DNA of 7,974 nt from a virus (lineage: Duplodnaviria > Heunggongvirae > Uroviricota > Caudoviricetes), in the IMG/VR virus record IMGVR_UViG_2681813313_000001. The stretch is one strand, 5' to 3'. The notes under the pieces were generated by a model that was not told the origin of the DNA, made no database searches, and saw only the letters and a program-made list of their open reading frames with translations. Each line of letters starts with the position of its first letter. Positions within the stretch are counted from its first letter, which is position 1. Both the position numbers and the translations under genes were made by a program. Shown piece by piece: positions 1-7,974 of the stretch.

Positions 1-80
1 TCATATTCATCCTGACTTTCCAGAACCATACGAATCGCCCGCTGACGGACTTCGGGGGAAAAACGAGTATTTTTAGTCAT
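1..80 (-). CDS. IS3-family transposase OrfA, N-terminal fragment (runs off window)
   Basis: Minus-strand ATG at 80..78; translation MTKNTRFSPEVRQRAIRMVLESQDEYD matches the N-terminus of IS3-group OrfA proteins (helix-turn-helix region) as I recall them. Confidence 0.8.
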   Translation of the reverse strand, partial: MTKNTRFSPEVRQRAIRMVLESQDEY

Positions 81-134
81 CCTGTTTACCTCTTTCTCAG
101 GGAGTTTAGTCTCCAGGATTTCCGGGGCGGTTCA
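1..134 (-). mobile_element. IS3-family insertion sequence (IS629/IS3411-like), terminal ~134 bp including inverted-repeat end; element continues beyond window start
   Basis: Reverse complement of 1-134 begins TGAACCGCCCCGG (IS3-family TG... terminus) and is followed by an SD (GAGG) and the orfA start; lambda P homology stops abruptly at ~134/135. Identity to IS629-like elements is from memory, not a search. Confidence 0.8.
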
Positions 135-727
135 GGTTCAGGGATCGCCTCACCACGGTTAATTCTCGCAGTCATATGGACAAGCTCATCTGCGGCCTTA
201 CGGCGTAATTCCGCATCAGTAAGCGCATTGGCCCGCATGTTCTGATACAGGTTGGTAACCAGCCAGTAGTGCGCGTTTGATTTCCACGGATAAGACTCCG
301 CATCCGGATACAGGCCTCGCTTCCGGCAATACTCGTAAACCATATCAACCAGCTCGCTGACGTTTGGCAGTCCGGCGGTAACGGATGCTTCTTCCCGGCA
401 CCATGCAACAAACTGCCCGGGTGATGGCAGAAATGGTCGATTCTGCCGACGGGCTACGCGCATTCCTGCGTTAACCTGTTCCATCGTGGTGATCCCGTTT
501 TCCCGAAAAGCCAGAACCCACTGGCGACGGATTTCGTTCACTTCGTTCTGGTCACGGTTAGCCAGGCTCGCCGGGAAAGTTGCCAGTAACTGGCTGAACA
601 CACCGTTGATGATCTGCGCTACCTGCTGTACCTGCGGCTTTTCGTCGTACTGTTCCGGCATGTTGTTGGCGATCCGACGCATCTGCTCACGGTCAAAGTT
701 AACCATCTGTGCGGCGATGTTTTTCAT
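86..727 (-). CDS. P: lambda replication protein P, C-terminally truncated; last ~15 codons are IS-derived (fusion tail)
   Basis: ORF translation MKNIAAQMVNFDREQMRRIANNMPEQYDEKPQVQQ... matches lambda P through ...RINRGEAIPEP, then diverges (EPPRKSWRLNSLRKR) exactly where the IS terminus starts. ATG at 727..725 overlaps the O stop (ATGA) as in lambda. Lambda P is 233 aa from memory; here ~198 P-derived residues. Confidence 0.9.
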   Translation of the reverse strand: MKNIAAQMVNFDREQMRRIANNMPEQYDEKPQVQQVAQIINGVFSQLLATFPASLANRDQNEVNEIRRQWVLAFRENGITTMEQVNAGMRVARRQNRPFLPSPGQFVAWCREEASVTAGLPNVSELVDMVYEYCRKRGLYPDAESYPWKSNAHYWLVTNLYQNMRANALTDAELRRKAADELVHMTARINRGEAIPEPEPPRKSWRLNSLRKR

Positions 728-1623
728 AGATCCACCCCGTAAATCCAGTCTGTGTTTGTCAGGTCGAGTTTTGGTTTGCTGGCTGTCACGCCTGCCTGTT
801 GCTTGTTACGGTTGATTTCGAGTTGGGTCCACTTATCGCGGAGTTTGGCCGGGCTCAGCACGTTACCGGACCAGAAGTTGTCCTGGCATGCCCAGCGGAA
901 CAGCACGCACATGTCGCGGTGGTTACGTCCGTCACGTTCACGCATCAGGCGGATATCGTTAGCCCACCCAGCAAAATTCGGTTTTCTGGCTGATGGTGCG
1001 ATAGTCTTCACCATGTCAAACATCCACTCTGCGGCGGTCAGGTCTTCTGCTGTCCCCCACTTGCTGCCGCTCTGAATTGCAGCATCCGGTTTCACCACAG
1101 AAAGGTCGTTTTCTGGCTGGTCAGAGGATTCGCCAGAATTCTCTGACGAATAATCTTTTCTTTTTTCTTTTGTAATAGTGTCTTTTGTGTCCCCCTGTTT
1201 TGAGGGATAGCAATCCCCCAATTTGAGGGATGTTTTATCCCTCGTTTTAGGGGATTTTCCCTCGTTTTGAGGGATGCACCATTCTGAGATGTTTTTATTT
1301 GGTCCAAACATGCCGCCTTGCTGCTTGATAATATTCATTCTGACGAGTTCTAACTTGGCTTCATTGCACCGTTTGACGGGTAACTTTGTAATCTCGCTAA
1401 GTTGAGAATCGGTGATTCTGTCCATTGGTTTATTCCACCCATAGGTTTTACGCAGAATGGCAAGCAGCACTTTAAACTGTCGCTTGGTCAGATCTGCGCC
1501 CGAATAAGCCTCAAGCAGCATATTTGATAGTCTGGCGTAACCATCATCGAGATCTGCCACATTACGCTCCTGTCCGGCAAAGTTACCTCTGCCGAAGTTG
1601 AGTATTTTTGCTGTATTTGTCAT
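724..1623 (-). CDS. O: lambda replication initiator protein O
   Basis: 299-aa translation MTNTAKILNFGRGNFAGQERNVADLDDGYARLSNMLLEAYSGADLTKRQFKVLLAIL... recognised as lambda O; SD AGGAG upstream of ATG at 1623; contains ori iterons internally as expected. Confidence 0.95.
   Translation of the reverse strand: MTNTAKILNFGRGNFAGQERNVADLDDGYARLSNMLLEAYSGADLTKRQFKVLLAILRKTYGWNKPMDRITDSQLSEITKLPVKRCNEAKLELVRMNIIKQQGGMFGPNKNISEWCIPQNEGKSPKTRDKTSLKLGDCYPSKQGDTKDTITKEKRKDYSSENSGESSDQPENDLSVVKPDAAIQSGSKWGTAEDLTAAEWMFDMVKTIAPSARKPNFAGWANDIRLMRERDGRNHRDMCVLFRWACQDNFWSGNVLSPAKLRDKWTQLEINRNKQQAGVTASKPKLDLTNTDWIYGVDL
1145..1276. repeat. ori-lambda: four ~19-bp O-binding iterons (about 1190-1276) plus adjacent AT-rich unwinding region (about 1145-1190), inside the O gene
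   Basis: Four tandem imperfect copies of the TCCCTC-AAAACG-AGGGA type palindrome seen at ~1191-1208, 1214-1232, 1236-1254, 1256-1274 (plus-strand reading: ccccctgttttgagggat / atcccccaatttgagggatg / tatccctcgttttaggggat / ttccctcgttttgagggatg), followed by a T/A-rich tract (taatcttttcttttttcttttgtaatag). Confidence 0.9.
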
Positions 1624-1633
1624 AATGACTCCT

Positions 1634-1712
1634 GTTGATAGATCCAGTAATGACCTCAGAACTCCATCTGGATTTGTTCAGAACGCTCGGTTGCCGCCGG
1701 GCGTTTTTTATT
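1634..1712 (+). ncRNA. oop: OOP antisense RNA (overlaps 3' end of cII), with intrinsic terminator ending in a T-run
   Basis: Sequence gttgatagatccagtaatgacctcagaactccatctggatttgttcagaacgctcggttgccgccgggcgttttttatt matches the lambda oop RNA as I remember it; GC-rich stem then TTTTTTATT at ~1695-1712; located antisense to cII 3' end. Exact ends approximate. Confidence 0.8.
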
Positions 1713-1949
1713 GGTGAGAATCGCAGCAACTTGTCGCGCCAATCGAGCCATGTCGTCGTCAACGACCCCCCATTCAAGAACAGCAAGCAGCATTGAGAAC
1801 TTTGGAATCCAGTCCCTCTTCCACCTGCTGATCTGCGACTTATCAACGCCCACAGCTTCCGCTGTCTTCTCAGTTCCAAGCATTGCGATTTTGTTAAGCA
1901 ACGCACTCTCGATTCGTAGAGCCTCGTTGCGTTTGTTTGCACGAACCAT
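1656..1949 (-). CDS. cII: transcriptional activator CII
   Basis: Translation from internal ATG (1949..1947): MVRANKRNEALRIESALLNKIAMLGTEKTAEAVGVDKSQISRWKRDWIPKFSMLLAVLEWGVVDDDMARLARQVAAILTNKKRPAATERSEQIQMEF (97 aa) = lambda CII; SD AAGGA upstream. The tool ORF 1656-2009 carries a 20-codon upstream extension that I reject. Confidence 0.95.
   Translation of the reverse strand: MVRANKRNEALRIESALLNKIAMLGTEKTAEAVGVDKSQISRWKRDWIPKFSMLLAVLEWGVVDDDMARLARQVAAILTNKKRPAATERSEQIQMEF
1927..1940 (+). promoter_or_regulatory. CII-binding site TTGC-N6-TTGC at the -35 region of pRE (promoter directed toward cI)
   Basis: ttgcgtttgtttgc read directly at 1927-1940, inside the first codons of cII on the opposite strand, the canonical lambda pRE arrangement. 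Confidence 0.85.
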
Positions 1950-2028
1950 ATGTAAGTATTTCCTTAGATAACAATTGATTGAATGTATGCAAATAAATGC
2001 ATACACCATAGGTGTGGTTTAATTTGAT

Positions 2029-2060
2029 GCCCTTTTTCAGGGCTGGGATGTGTAAGAGCG
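2029..2060 (-). promoter_or_regulatory. nutR (boxA CGCTCTTA at 2060..2053, boxB GCCCTGAAAAAGGGC at 2043..2029, minus-strand reading)
   Basis: Reverse complement of 2029-2060 reads cgctcttacacatcccagccctgaaaaagggc; boxB is a perfect 5-bp stem hairpin; located immediately downstream of cro stop. Confidence 0.9.
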
Positions 2061-2068
2061 GGAATGTC

Positions 2069-3424
<1,356 letters not shown>

Positions 3425-3474
3425 TCCCCACCTCAATCTCGATAACCAAAAAACAAACTATTTTCCGTTTAAAA

Positions 3475-3543
3475 ACAATGGAGTTTGTTTTTCATGCCCC
3501 CTTTTTACAATATTTCTTGTTTACAACATACAATCTTTCTTGT
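3475..3543. promoter_or_regulatory. Left operator OL1-3 (434-type) with pL promoter directed rightward (plus strand) toward N
   Basis: Three 14-bp ACAA-N6-TTGT sites: acaatggagtttgt (3475-3488), acaatatttcttgt (3507-3520), acaatctttcttgt (3530-3543); positioned between the cI-operon end and nutL/N. Confidence 0.8.
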
Positions 3544-3587
3544 AATTTTAAGCCATCAGCAGGACGCACTGACCACCATGAAGGTGA

Positions 3588-3618
3588 CGCTCTTAAAAAT
3601 TAAGCCCTGAAGAAGGGC
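3588..3618 (+). promoter_or_regulatory. nutL (boxA CGCTCTTA 3588-3595; boxB GCCCTGAAGAAGGGC 3604-3618)
   Basis: cgctcttaaaaattaagccctgaagaagggc read directly; boxB forms a 5-bp stem hairpin; upstream of N in the pL transcript. Confidence 0.9.
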
Positions 3619-3776
3619 AGCATTCAAAGCAGAAGGCTTTGGGGTGTGTGATACGAAACGAAGCATTGGCCGGAAGTGCGATTCCGGATTAGCTGCCAAT
3701 GTGCCAATCGCGGGGGGTTTTCGTTCAGGACTACAACTGCCACACACCACCAAAGCTAACTGACAGGAGAATCCAG

Positions 3777-4100
3777 ATGGATGCACAAACACGCCGCCGC
3801 GAACGTCGCGCAGAGAAACAGGCTCAATGGAAAGCAGCAAATCCCCTGTTGGTTGGGGTAAGCGCAAAACCAGTTAACCGCCCTATTCTCTCGCTGAATC
3901 GCAAACCGAAATCACGAGTAGAAAGCGCACTAAATCCGATAGACCTTACAGTGCTGGCTGAATACCACAAACAGATTGAAAGCAACCTGCAACGTATTGA
4001 GCGCAAGAATCAGCGCACATGGTACAGCAAGCCTGGCGAACGCGGCATAACATGCAGTGGACGCCAGAAAATTAAGGGAAAATCGATTCCTCTTATCTAG
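3777..4100 (+). CDS. N: antitermination protein N
   Basis: From ATG 3777: MDAQTRRRERRAEKQAQWKAANPLLVGVSAKPVNRPILSLNRKPKSRVESALNPIDLTVLAEYHKQIESNLQRIERKNQRTWYSKPGERGITCSGRQKIKGKSIPLI (107 aa) = lambda N with arginine-rich motif; SD AGGAGA upstream. The 133-aa tool ORF from 3699 is an upstream extension. Confidence 0.95.
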   Translation: MDAQTRRRERRAEKQAQWKAANPLLVGVSAKPVNRPILSLNRKPKSRVESALNPIDLTVLAEYHKQIESNLQRIERKNQRTWYSKPGERGITCSGRQKIKGKSIPLI

Positions 4101-4652
4101 TTACTTAGATATTGGCCTTGGCTTTATCTCAATATTATATGGATCATAGCTGGCAACTAATTCAGTCCAGTAAATATCCTCAATAGGGAATAATATATGC
4201 TTCCCATTCCATCGGGAAAAAGTTTTGTTCAACACACCAAGCTCAATCAACTCACTAATGTATGGGAATTGTTTTGATGTAACCACATACTTCCTGCCTT
4301 CATTAAGGGCTGCGCACAAAACCATAGATTGCTCTTCTGTAAGGTTTTGAATTACTGATCGCACTTTATCGTTTTGCATCTTAATGCGTTTTCTTAGCTT
4401 AAATCGCTTATATCTGGCGCTGGCAATAGCTGATAATCGATGCACATTAATTGCTAGCGAAAATGCAAGAGCAAAGACGAAAACATGCCACACATGAGGA
4501 ATACCGATTCTCTCATTAACATATTCAGGCCAGTTATCTGGGCTTAAAAGCAGAAGTCCAACCCAGATAACGATCATATACATGGTTCTCTCCAGAGGTT
4601 CATTACTGAACACTCGTCCGAGAATAACGAGTGGATCCATTTCTATACTCAT
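4101..4652 (-). CDS. sieB: superinfection exclusion protein SieB-like (membrane protein)
   Basis: Position (convergent with and abutting the N stop, between N and ral) and size match lambda sieB; hydrophobic N-terminal segments (MYMIVIWVGLLLL..., HVWHVFVFALAFSLAI) suggest membrane helices. First ATG is at 4652..4650 (the tool start at 4655 is a TTG). Assigned by synteny and memory, not sequence search. Confidence 0.7.
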   Translation of the reverse strand: MSIEMDPLVILGRVFSNEPLERTMYMIVIWVGLLLLSPDNWPEYVNERIGIPHVWHVFVFALAFSLAINVHRLSAIASARYKRFKLRKRIKMQNDKVRSVIQNLTEEQSMVLCAALNEGRKYVVTSKQFPYISELIELGVLNKTFSRWNGKHILFPIEDIYWTELVASYDPYNIEIKPRPISK

Positions 4653-4779
4653 CAAACTGTAGGGGTTGTAATAGTTTATCCGATTTCTCGCTGTAGGGGT
4701 ACACGAGAACCACCGAGCCTGATGTGGTTAAAAGACAGGCACAATCTTTACTACCGCAATCCACTATTTAAGGTGATAT

Positions 4780-4866
4780 ATGGAAGAAGAATTTGAAGAG
4801 TTCGAAGAGCATCCTCAGGATGTGATGGAACAATACCAGGACTATCCGTATGACTACGACTATTGA
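4780..4866 (+). CDS. small acidic ORF (28 aa), lambda orf28-like
   Basis: ATG 4780, translation MEEEFEEFEEHPQDVMEQYQDYPYDYDY, stop TGA 4864-4866; preceded by aaggtga SD-like; overlaps ral start by 17 nt in another frame. Tiny ORF; coding status uncertain. Confidence 0.45.
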   Translation: MEEEFEEFEEHPQDVMEQYQDYPYDYDY

Positions 4867-5050
4867 TAAAAATCAATGGTGTGGACAATTCAAGCGATGC
4901 AATGGATGCAAGCTGCAATCTGAATGCATGGTTAAGCCTGAAGAAATGTTTCCTGTAATGGAAGATGGGAAATATGTCGATAAATGGGCAATACGAACGA
5001 CGGCAATGATTGCCAGAGAACTTGGTAAACAGAACAACAAAGCTGCCTGA
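4850..5050 (+). CDS. ral: restriction alleviation protein Ral
   Basis: 66-aa translation MTTTIDKNQWCGQFKRCNGCKLQSECMVKPEEMFPVMEDGKYVDKWAIRTTAMIARELGKQNNKAA recognised as lambda Ral; Cys-rich. Confidence 0.88.
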   Translation: MTTTIDKNQWCGQFKRCNGCKLQSECMVKPEEMFPVMEDGKYVDKWAIRTTAMIARELGKQNNKAA

Positions 5051-5186
5051 TAGTGGCCTTTATTTTTGGCATAAATAACAGAATAAACACTGCACTGTGT
5101 ATTCATTCCAACGAGTGAATACACGGAGCAATGTCGCTCGTAACTAAACAGGAGCCGACTTGTTCTGATTATTGGAAATCTTCTTT

Positions 5187-5213
5187 GCCCTCCAGTGTGA
5201 GGGCGATTTTTTA
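5187..5213 (+). terminator. predicted intrinsic terminator hairpin in the pL operon (between ral and ea10-like gene)
   Basis: gccctc-cagtgt-gagggc perfect 6-bp GC-rich stem (5187-5192 / 5199-5204) followed by gaTTTTTTa (T-run 5207-5212). Expected to be read through by N-modified polymerase. Confidence 0.6.
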
Positions 5214-5232
5214 TCTATGAGGATATGAATAG

Positions 5233-5601
5233 ATGTCAAACATCAAAAAATACATCATTGATTACGACTGGAAAGCATCAATAGAAATTGAAATCGACCA
5301 TGACGTAATGACAGAGGAAAAACTTCACCAGATTAATAATTTCTGGTCAGACTCTGAATACCGACTCAATAAACACGGCTCTGTATTAAATGCTGTATTA
5401 ATCATGCTGGCGCAACATGCTCTGCTTATAGCAATTTCAAGCGAATTAAATGCATATGGTGTTGTGTGTGAGTTCGACTGGAATGATGGAAATGGTCAGG
5501 AAGGATGGCCTCCAATGGATGGTAGCGAAGGAATAAGAATTACCGATATCGATACATCAGGAATATTTGATCCAGATGATATGACTATCAAAGCCGCCTG
5601 A
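5233..5601 (+). CDS. ea10: Ea10-like early protein (122 aa), function unknown
   Basis: 122-aa ORF at the position and with the length of lambda ea10 (between ral and cIII, 72 bp upstream of cIII); acidic, AT-rich codon usage. Identity to lambda Ea10 is inferred from synteny and size; the sequence itself was not recalled. Confidence 0.6.
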   Translation: MSNIKKYIIDYDWKASIEIEIDHDVMTEEKLHQINNFWSDSEYRLNKHGSVLNAVLIMLAQHALLIAISSELNAYGVVCEFDWNDGNGQEGWPPMDGSEGIRITDIDTSGIFDPDDMTIKAA

Positions 5602-5673
5602 GCGCGGCGTTACCGCATACCAATTACGCTTCACTCGAGGCGTTTTTCGTTATGTATAAATAAGGAGCACACC

Positions 5674-5838
5674 ATGCAATATGCCATTGCAGGGTGGCCT
5701 GTTGCTGGCTGCCCTTCCGAATCTTTACTTGAACGAATCACCCGTAAATTACGTGACGGATGGAAACGCCTTATCGACATACTTAATCAGCCAGGAGTCC
5801 CGAAAAATGGATCAAACAATTATGGCTATCCAGACTAA
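5674..5838 (+). CDS. cIII: CIII protein (FtsH/HflB inhibitor, stabilises CII)
   Basis: ATG 5674 after SD taaggag; translation [54 protein letters not shown] (54 aa) = lambda CIII. Below the size cutoff of the supplied ORF track. Confidence 0.92.
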   Translation: MQYAIAGWPVAGCPSESLLERITRKLRDGWKRLIDILNQPGVPKNGSNNYGYPD

Positions 5839-5950
5839 ATTCACTATCGCCACTTTTATTGGCGATGAAAAGATGTTTCGTGAGGCCGTCGACGCTTATA
5901 AAAAATGGATATTAATACAGAAACTGAGATCAAGCAAAAGCATTCACTAA
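5807..5950 (+). CDS. kil: host-killing protein Kil (cell-division/FtsZ inhibitor)
   Basis: ATG 5807 (SD AGGAG upstream), translation [47 protein letters not shown] (47 aa) = lambda Kil; overlaps the 3' end of cIII in another frame. The tool ORF 5681-5950 is its upstream extension. Confidence 0.88.
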
Positions 5951-6025
5951 CCCCCTTTCCTGTTTTCCTAATCAGCCTGGCATTTCGCGGGCGATATTTT
6001 CACAGCCATTTTCAGGAGTTCAGCC

Positions 6026-6322
6026 ATGAACGCTTATTACATTCAGGATCGTCTTGAGGCTCAGAGCTGGGCGCGTCACTACCAGCAGATCGCCCGTGAA
6101 GAGAAAGAGGCAGAACTGGCAGACGACATGGAAAAAGGCCTGCCCCAGCACCTGTTTGAATCGCTATGCATCGATCATTTGCAACGCCACGGGGCCAGCA
6201 AAAAAGCCATTACCCGTGCATTTGATGACGATGTTGAGTTTCAGGAGCGCATGGCAGAACACATCCGGTACATGGTTGAAACCATTGCTCACCATCAGGT
6301 TGATATTGATTCAGAGGTATAA
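6026..6322 (+). CDS. gam: Gam, RecBCD inhibitor (short GamS form, 98 aa); the upstream long-form (GamL) start at 5905 is in a different frame in this sequence
   Basis: Translation [98 protein letters not shown] recognised as lambda Gam; SD AGGAG 7 nt upstream of ATG 6026. Confidence 0.92.
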
Positions 6323-6327
6323 AACGG

Positions 6328-7113
6328 ATGAGTACAGCACTCGCAACGCTGGCTGGGAAGCTGGCTGAACGTGTCGGCATGGATTCTGTCGACCCACAGG
6401 AACTGATCACCACTCTTCGCCAGACGGCATTTAAAGGTGATGCCAGCGATGCGCAGTTCATCGCATTGTTGATCGTCGCCAACCAGTACGGCCTTAATCC
6501 GTGGACGAAAGAAATTTACGCCTTCCCTGACAAGCAGAACGGCATCGTTCCGGTGGTGGGCGTTGATGGCTGGTCCCGCATCATCAATGAAAACCAGCAG
6601 TTTGATGGCATGGACTTTGAGCAGGACAATGAATCCTGCACATGCCGGATTTACCGCAAGGACCGTAATCATCCGATCTGCGTTACCGAGTGGATGGATG
6701 AATGCCGCCGCGAACCATTCAAAACCCGTGAAGGCAGAGAAATCACGGGGCCGTGGCAGTCGCATCCTAAACGGATGTTACGGCATAAAGCCATGATTCA
6801 GTGTGCCCGTCTCGCCTTCGGATTTGCGGGTATCTATGACAAGGATGAAGCCGAGCGCATTGTCGAAAATACCGCATACACTGCAGAACGTCAGCCGGAA
6901 CGCGACATCACTCCGGTTAACGATGAAACCATGCAGGAGATTAACACTCTGCTGATTGCCCTGGACAAAACATGGGATGACGACTTATTGCCGCTCTGTT
7001 CCCAGATATTTCGCCGCGACATTCGCGCATCGTCAGAACTGACACAGGCCGAAGCAGTGAAAGCTCTTGGATTCCTGAAACAGAAAGCCACTGAGCAGAA
7101 GGTGGCAGCATGA
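6328..7113 (+). CDS. bet: Bet (Red-beta) single-strand annealing recombinase
   Basis: 261-aa translation [156 protein letters not shown]... = lambda Bet, full length. Confidence 0.95.
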
Positions 7114-7733
7114 CACCGGACATTATCCTGCAGCGTACCGGGATCGACGTGAGAGCTGTCGAACAGGGGGATGATGCATGGCACAAATTACGGCTCGGCG
7201 TCATCACCGCTTCAGAAGTTCACAACGTGATAGCAAAGCCCCGATCAGGAAAGAAGTGGCCTGACATGAAAATGTCCTACTTCCACACCCTGCTAGCTGA
7301 GGTTTGCACCGGTGTGGCTCCGGAAGTTAACGCTAAAGCGCTGGCCTGGGGAAAACAGTACGAGAACGACGCCAGAACCCTGTTTGAGTTCACTTCCGGC
7401 GTAAATGTTATTGAATCTCCGATCATCTATCGCGACGAAAGTATGCGCACCGCCTGCTCTCCCGATGGTTTATGCAGTGACGGCAACGGCCTTGAACTGA
7501 AATGCCCGTTTACCTCCCGGGATTTCATGAAGTTCCGGCTCGGTGGTTTCGAGGCCATAAAGTCGGCTTACATGGCCCAGGTGCAGTACAGCATGTGGGT
7601 GACGCGAAAAGATGCCTGGTACTTTGCCAACTATGACCCGCGCATGAAGCGTGAAGGCCTGCATTATGTCGTGATTGAGCGGAATGAAAAGTACATGGCG
7701 AGTTTTGACGAGATGGTGCCGGAGTTCAGGTGA
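7110..7733 (+). CDS. exo: lambda exonuclease (Red-alpha), 3'-truncated by IS1 insertion (about 206 of 226 codons retained; stop supplied by IS1 end)
   Basis: Translation [134 protein letters not shown]... matches lambda Exo up to ...VPEF, then the IS1 terminus (ggtgatgctgcc) supplies R-stop. ATG 7110 overlaps bet stop (ATGA). Confidence 0.9.
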
Positions 7734-7974
7734 TGCTGCCAACTTACTGATTTAGTGTATGATGGTGTTTTTGAGGTGCTCCAGTGGCTTCTGTTTCTAT
7801 CAGCTGTCCCTCCTGTTCAGCTACTGACGGGGTGGTGCGTAACGGCAAAAGCACTGCCGGACATCAGCGCTATCTCTGCTCTCACTGCCGTAAAACATGG
7901 CAACTGCAGTTCACTTACACCGCTTCTCAACCCGGTACGCACCAGAAAATCATTGATATGGCCATGAATGGCGT
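7729..7974 (+). mobile_element. IS1 insertion sequence, left end (IRL) and 5' part of insA; continues beyond window end
   Basis: ggtgatgctgccaacttactgatttagtgtatgatggtgtttttgaggtgctccagtggcttctgtttctatcagctgtccctcc... matches the IS1 left end as I recall it, starting exactly where exo homology ends. Confidence 0.9.
7784..7974 (+). CDS. insA: IS1 InsA (transposition repressor / N-terminal part of InsAB' transposase), partial, runs off window
   Basis: GTG start at 7784; translation [63 protein letters not shown]... = IS1 InsA zinc-finger N-terminus. Confidence 0.88.

Follow-up and report, generated by a model that had tools for sequence, protein, structure and literature searches.

Introduction

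The Red region of phage lambda (gam-bet-exo, NC_001416 31348-33232) is a close counterpart of the locus described here, a 7,974-nt stretch of DNA that we refer to as the window. Gene order and strand logic are the same in both, but in the window exo ends at codon 206, where it meets an IS1 element, the long 138-amino acid (aa) Gam frame is broken, and the immunity region is of the phage 434 type rather than the lambda type. A closer relative is the prophage that occupies the lambda attachment site beside ybhC in Escherichia coli Z1322HEC0005 (L001, NZ_CP148578.1), which has the same 434-type cI and cro genes and the same 98-aa gam as the window. Unlike the window, it encodes full-length P (233 aa) and Exo (226 aa), carries no insertion sequence (IS) at either site and continues from orf60a to xis/int.

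A third point of comparison is the decayed lambdoid prophage of E. coli NCTC9040 (NZ_LR134247.1), the Red region of which is 97.7% identical to the window over positions 6665-7728 and also carries a copy of IS1 (IS1A). In NCTC9040, in contrast to the window, exo is intact, and the IS1A occupies a zapA-like gene 0.6 kb further downstream, with a 9-bp duplication, CGCTGATGG, on either side. The same stretch (NZ_LR134247.1 2436-5093) also bears a deletion by which a remnant of ren has been joined to a bet gene that lacks its 5' part. NCTC9040 is, then, a case of independent decay of the same region.

Two insertion sequences complete the picture. A complete IS1 is 768 bp long and usually generates a target duplication of 9 bp, the range for the family being 8-9 bp. 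The window shares the first 246 nt of the element; the contig stops short of the frameshift site, insB', the right inverted repeat and the target duplication. Of IS1203/IS629 the window shares the terminal 134 nt, the remaining element again being outside the contig; we take IS629 to be a near-synonym of IS1203. Insertion of IS elements into prophage genes is a routine route to cryptic lambdoid prophages, and a single case carries little biological weight.

Results

IS1 truncates exo within codon 207

The positions of the features discussed below are collected in Table 1. The first-pass annotation of this DNA had proposed that Exo homology ends at ...DEMVPEF and that the IS1 left end, followed by insA, begins at position 7729, leaving Exo without its last ~20 residues and with an IS-encoded stop. 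Our results bear this out to the nucleotide. Residues 1-206 of the truncated protein are identical to those of the 226-aa Exo of the uninterrupted Z1322HEC0005 prophage, and residues 207-226 are missing. A comparison with lambda exo, which the same annotation had suggested, gives 202 of 206 identical residues, with four positions that differ, and the segment aligns to residues 1-206 of lambda exonuclease, itself 226 aa at full length, in the structures 6M9K, 1AVQ, 3SLP and 3SM4 (E ~1e-140; 3.6e-140 to 6M9K and 1AVQ). Residue 207 is an Arg in place of the Ile of the full-length proteins and is directly followed by a stop. The junction reads ...GAG TTC A/GG TGA, the slash marking the boundary: codon 207 consists of the last exo base and nucleotides 1-2 of IS1, and the stop codon of IS1 nucleotides 3-5. 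In every genome that bears the gene among 5,426 complete E. coli genomes, nucleotide homology to exo stops at position 619 of the query, that is, at position 7728 of the window.

Table 1. Features at the two IS junctions and in the Red region (window coordinates)
Feature	Position	Strand	Description
IS1203/IS629-type terminal 134 nt (IS3 family)	1..134	-	First transposase ORF from its start at ~80 down to 1; runs off contig end
P, IS-interrupted	86..727	-	198 native codons, 15 IS-encoded codons, stop; native gene resumes at 135
gam, 98-aa form, intact	6026..6322	+	Host RecBCD nuclease inhibitor; Pfam Gam match
bet, 261 aa, intact incl. C-terminal domain	6328..7113	+	Single-strand annealing protein; TIGR01913 match
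exo, IS-truncated	7110..7733	+	ORF of 207 aa; codons 1-206 native, codon 207 AGG (Arg) across junction, TGA stop from IS1
Predicted target duplication	7720..7728	+	CGGAGTTCA, 9 bp, inferred from the usual 9-bp duplication of IS1
IS1, first 246 nt	7729..7974	+	Left inverted repeat starting GGTGATGCTGCC, then 5' part of insA; runs off contig end
insA, first 63 codons	7784..7974	+	PF03811, PF12759 and NF033558 matches

The first-pass annotation had also allowed that the segment beyond exo might be something other than IS1. It is IS1: the segment starts with the left inverted repeat of the element and matches the annotated IS1A of NCTC9040 at 245 of 246 nt, counted from the first base of the element. 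Just inside this left end, insA encodes an InsA zinc ribbon (PF03811, Zn_ribbon_InsA, E 9e-22) and a helix-turn-helix domain (PF12759, HTH_Tnp_IS1, E 6e-11), and a partial match to NF033558 (transpos_IS1) stays below the cut-off of that model, only 63 codons of insA being present here. IS1 and exo share the same orientation. Neither the exo/IS1 junction nor the truncation is attributable to chance.

The junction itself was not found by exact-pattern searches of GTDB representative genomes, IMG/VR and JGI metagenomes, nor by megablast among the 5,426 complete E. coli genomes. NCTC9040 was the sole full-coverage megablast match to the exo/IS1 query and was rejected as an instance of the same junction, since its IS1 occupies a different site.

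An exact-protein look-up among ~15 billion proteins returned the truncated 207-aa Exo sequence from one contig only. This rarity, and the location of the junction in a draft assembly, 246 nt from a contig end and beside a multi-copy repeat, would fit an assembly artefact in which exo and IS1 were joined as a chimera while the real exo is intact. A random misjoin is not what the sequence looks like, though: the switch coincides to the nucleotide with the start of the IS1 inverted repeat, and on the other side of the window with the IS1203 terminus, which is the pattern left by transposition, and exo and IS1 have no sequence in common that could mislead an assembler. Because both breaks fall on a terminal IS nucleotide, we consider an assembly chimera very unlikely.

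The window is a complete draft contig

The same look-up revealed that the window is identical over its whole length (1-7974) to the entire contig CXZW01000051.1 (7,974 bp) of assembly GCA_001285525.1, an E. coli draft assembly whose protein records CTS63763.1, WP_053905225.1 and CTS63350.1 are named Escherichia coli. These names set aside Shigella, which the IS load had made a candidate. The contig begins and ends inside IS sequence, with 134 nt of IS1203 at one end and 246 nt of IS1 at the other. Multi-copy repeats halt short-read assemblers, and IS1 is such a repeat: a query that includes the IS1 segment has matches in 5,304 of the 5,426 complete E. coli genomes, at a median of 10 places per genome. 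The contig ends in an IS on both sides because short-read assemblers could not pass these repeats.

The first-pass annotation had described the early region as bracketed by two different IS elements, in line with a decaying or immobilised prophage. Both the IS in P and the IS1 in exo are real, and this part of the description stands; the bracket, in turn, is weakened: because the window equals an entire draft contig, the bracketing says less about the prophage than appears. Partly or even largely, the two-IS bracket reflects repeat collapse in the assembly and not biology. The lesson is a general one: windows with IS fragments at both ends may be whole draft contigs, and their bracketing is easily over-read.

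Note that the sole mismatch to the reference IS1A in the 246 nt is at window position 7855, with T for C at IS1 position 127. Copy-specific IS1 variants such as this one may account for the contig reaching 246 nt into the repeat.

IS1203 interrupts the replication gene P

At the opposite end of the contig, positions 1-134 belong to an IS1203 terminus: E. coli 24AR0357 carries an element annotated as 'IS3-like element IS1203 family transposase', the end of which agrees with the window at 135 of 135 nt (100%). The first transposase ORF begins a short way inside this terminus, and the fragment also gives a weak HTH_Tnp_1 match. P, for which PF06992 is recorded, agrees fully with lambda P (233 residues) up to residue 198 and diverges from residue 199, the junction lying between positions 134 and 135, and the resulting fusion ORF encodes 213 aa. 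An exact look-up of this P-IS fusion protein returned CXZW01000051.1 alone. While the P/IS1203 junction in one piece was absent from the 5,426 complete E. coli genomes, other IS3-family insertions near P, ren or ninB were present in 12 of them. Since P is broken, the prophage is incapable of lytic replication, whether exo was cut by a simple insertion or by a deletion.

A lambda-backbone prophage with 434-type immunity lies between the two elements

Between the two IS elements (positions 135-7728), the window is identical at 7593 of 7594 nt to the uninterrupted prophage of Z1322HEC0005. The single difference is at position 1765, in codon 62 of cII; as translated by hand, this codon is the lambda-type Val in the window and would be Gly in the Z1322HEC0005 prophage. 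As the 7.6 kb between the insertions differ from an intact prophage by one base, both insertions are recent.

Sequence comparison identifies the interior as a natural lambda-backbone, 434-immunity prophage, so that the laboratory hybrid lambda imm434 has a natural counterpart here. Identity to lambda is 99.8% in the O-P segment and, at the nucleotide level, 98.5% in the segment from N to exo (3554-7728); N is identical to lambda N, nutL lies at 3603 and O is identical at 299 of 299 residues. Between these segments lies the immunity region (2063-3553), with cro, cI, the operators and the gene that follows cI. It matches phage 434 and lambda imm434 at 98.8% identity, and Sf6, Sf101 and HK633 have it as well.

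One further reading frame is found in this region: an ORF of 134 aa (3020-3424, plus strand) overlaps cI at its end, in the place of the rexA/rexB genes of lambda. Its product has a hydrophobic N-terminus and matches phrog_2651, a family of unknown function (E 7e-59), with no match in Pfam or NCBIfam. In records of phage 434, the features given for this region include a 'repressor protection protein', to which the 134-aa ORF might correspond.

Gam and Bet are intact

The view of the first-pass annotation that Bet (261 aa) and the short form of Gam are intact agrees well with profile matches and with the comparison with lambda. Bet is identical to lambda Bet at 260 of 261 residues (A255T), scores 169.5 bits against the TIGR01913 bet_lambda equivalog (cut-off 76.95) and has the C-terminal Exo/SSB-binding domain. 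The 98-aa Gam is identical at 96 of 98 positions to the C-terminal 98 residues of the annotated 138-aa Gam of lambda, and PF06064 covers its full length (1-98 of 98 profile positions, E 3e-65).

Compared with lambda, one extra nucleotide at window positions 5985-5990 (near 5987; upstream ORF 5905-6057) interrupts the long Gam frame. The window reads CAGCCATTTTCAGG here and lambda CAGCTA-TTTCAGG; the 98-aa form remains, with its own AGGAG ribosome-binding site. The uninterrupted Z1322HEC0005 prophage has the same additional nucleotide in the gam region, and its annotation lists no gam other than the 98-aa gene. Because this relative shares the change, the short Gam is a feature of the lineage and not a sign of decay.

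If Exo is inactive, Gam and Bet would be the sole working Red functions left. Bet alone is reportedly sufficient for oligonucleotide recombination. Expression of gam and bet would first need inactivation of the 434-type repressor and then N-mediated antitermination of pL transcription, a logic that we infer because cI, N and nutL are intact.

The truncation probably inactivates Exo

The truncated protein retains the catalytic core of the lambda exonuclease (YqaJ / PD-(D/E)XK) family, whose full members act as a toroidal homotrimer that degrades dsDNA processively in the 5'-3' direction. The YqaJ domain (PF09588) matches residues 24-167 with 103 bits against a cut-off of 22, and the catalytic and 5'-phosphate-binding residues that we checked are all present: D119, E129 and K131 of the catalytic site as well as R28, E85 and Q157. 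What the protein lacks is the full length of 226-232 aa, with the conserved C-terminal helix and the FGxQW tail. The product is a truncated allele of an Exo family member and not a full member.

The lost segment is under evident constraint. Almost all Exo homologues at 58-99% identity are 226-232 aa long. In an alignment of 20 Exo homologues, 8 of the 20 positions of segment 207-226 are invariant (I207, M210, D211, L214, G218, G222, Q224 and W225) and three more are at least 90% conserved (K209, F219 and F221), giving 11 of 20 in all. Mean column identity is 0.83 in the lost segment versus 0.80 in residues 1-206. Conservation of the lost segment does not exceed that of the remaining protein (Fisher p = 0.65); the two are equally constrained.

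As to structure, an AlphaFold model of full-length Exo places the C-terminal helix at residues 193-216, and the IS cuts it at 206; the model, built from 20 close homologues, is of low confidence overall (mean pLDDT 59; C-terminal helix blocks 78-88) and was used for helix position only. In the trimer of the homologue LHK-Exo, one subunit contributes alpha3, the loop from alpha3 to alpha4 and the last helix, alpha7, to the subunit interface, in which Glu194, Lys199 and Ala202 take part (PMC3239189). In a HMMER alignment, lambda residue 212 pairs with LHK-Exo residue 193; by extrapolation beyond the aligned part, interface residues 194, 199 and 202 would roughly correspond to lambda residues 213-221, in the deleted region. 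All solved structures of lambda Exo comprise residues 1-226. The residues of Exo that bind the C-terminal domain of Bet are those of helix E (83-95), L184 and Y186 (PMC6393309), all of which lie within the retained residues 1-206. The searchable literature returned no experiments on C-terminally truncated lambda Exo/Red-alpha.

Since the lost residues are conserved and belong to the C-terminal helix, and since the corresponding helix of a homologue is at the trimer interface, the truncated Exo is probably inactive. This judgement draws on conservation, on the modelled helix and on analogy to LHK-Exo. Could the truncated Exo still be active and the Red system functionally complete, the last 20 residues being dispensable or only modulatory? 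The preserved catalytic and 5'-phosphate-binding residues and the preserved Bet-binding helix E would allow it, as would the fact that the Pfam YqaJ domain model stops at residue 167. We nevertheless consider it unlikely: conservation of the lost segment equals that of the core, the lengths of the homologues are tightly fixed, and the cut falls in the middle of a helix whose LHK-Exo counterpart belongs to the trimer interface. The description of the Red system as reduced to Gam plus Bet follows from the probable inactivity of Exo and shares its strength.

Discussion

In this study we have examined a prophage early region in which two known insertion sequences meet known phage genes. As the best explanation, which we regard as very likely, IS1 transposed into exo of a lambda-backbone, 434-immunity prophage, a separate IS1203 entered P, and the assembly broke at the repeats. 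IS1 would have inserted between the first and the second base of codon 207, in the orientation of the leftward (pL) operon, and a separate IS1203/IS629 insertion cut P at codon 198/199. The product, Exo(1-206) plus Arg, keeps the catalytic core and helix E and loses the C-terminal half of the last helix along with the conserved tail; most likely it would not fold or trimerise properly.

What lies beyond the IS1 left end can be approached in two ways. We lean towards a simple insertion, in which another contig would hold the final 60 nt of exo and the remaining left arm, beyond IS1. Such an insertion is the most elementary event, and the element shows no other damage. A simple insertion would place the IS1 right end (...GAGTCATTACC) beyond the end of the contig, followed by CGGAGTTCA, then by TCGAAAAAATGGACGAGG... 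and on into orf60a. Exact-pattern searches of IMG/VR and GTDB representative genomes for the right junction expected in this case (IS1 right end, a gap of 0-12 nt, then TCGAAAAAATGGACGAGGCACTGGC) gave no match.

Alternatively, the IS1, and perhaps the IS1203 as well, might be the scar of an adjacent IS-mediated deletion or inversion. The 3' end of exo would then be gone or displaced, as would the left arm from orf60a to int/attL, and only a 7.6-kb immunity-plus-Red block would be left. Adjacent deletions promoted by IS1 are well established, and the related NCTC9040 prophage displays decay of this kind, with its ren-bet deletion and its IS1A downstream of exo. The contig ends in an IS on both sides, and no partner junction surfaced in GTDB, IMG/VR or JGI metagenome searches; this absence from public collections says little, however, about the sibling contigs of GCA_001285525.1. 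A single difference from the intact prophage in 7,594 nt leaves little time for secondary rearrangement, and a simple insertion remains the elementary event. We therefore treat a deletion or inversion as possible but the less probable of the two.

Either way, the event is of an already known kind, namely ordinary prophage decay, and the elements and processes involved are all known; the IS and phage genes are near-identical to textbook elements. A more far-reaching reading would be that the 7.6-kb block (434-type immunity, sieB, ral, N, gam and bet) is the sole remnant after two-sided IS deletions and has been kept for the benefit of the host, through superinfection immunity or exclusion together with SOS-inducible, Exo-independent Gam/Bet annealing, or else that Exo(1-206) persists as a non-trimeric Bet binder via helix E. 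We deem this very unlikely. As a more immediate point of interest, the exo allele is a natural test of the need for lambda Exo residues 207-226 in trimer formation. The truncated product is represented in RefSeq and UniRef as WP_053905225.1 / UPI0006A1576C under the name 'lambda exonuclease family protein', which gives no sign of the IS truncation.
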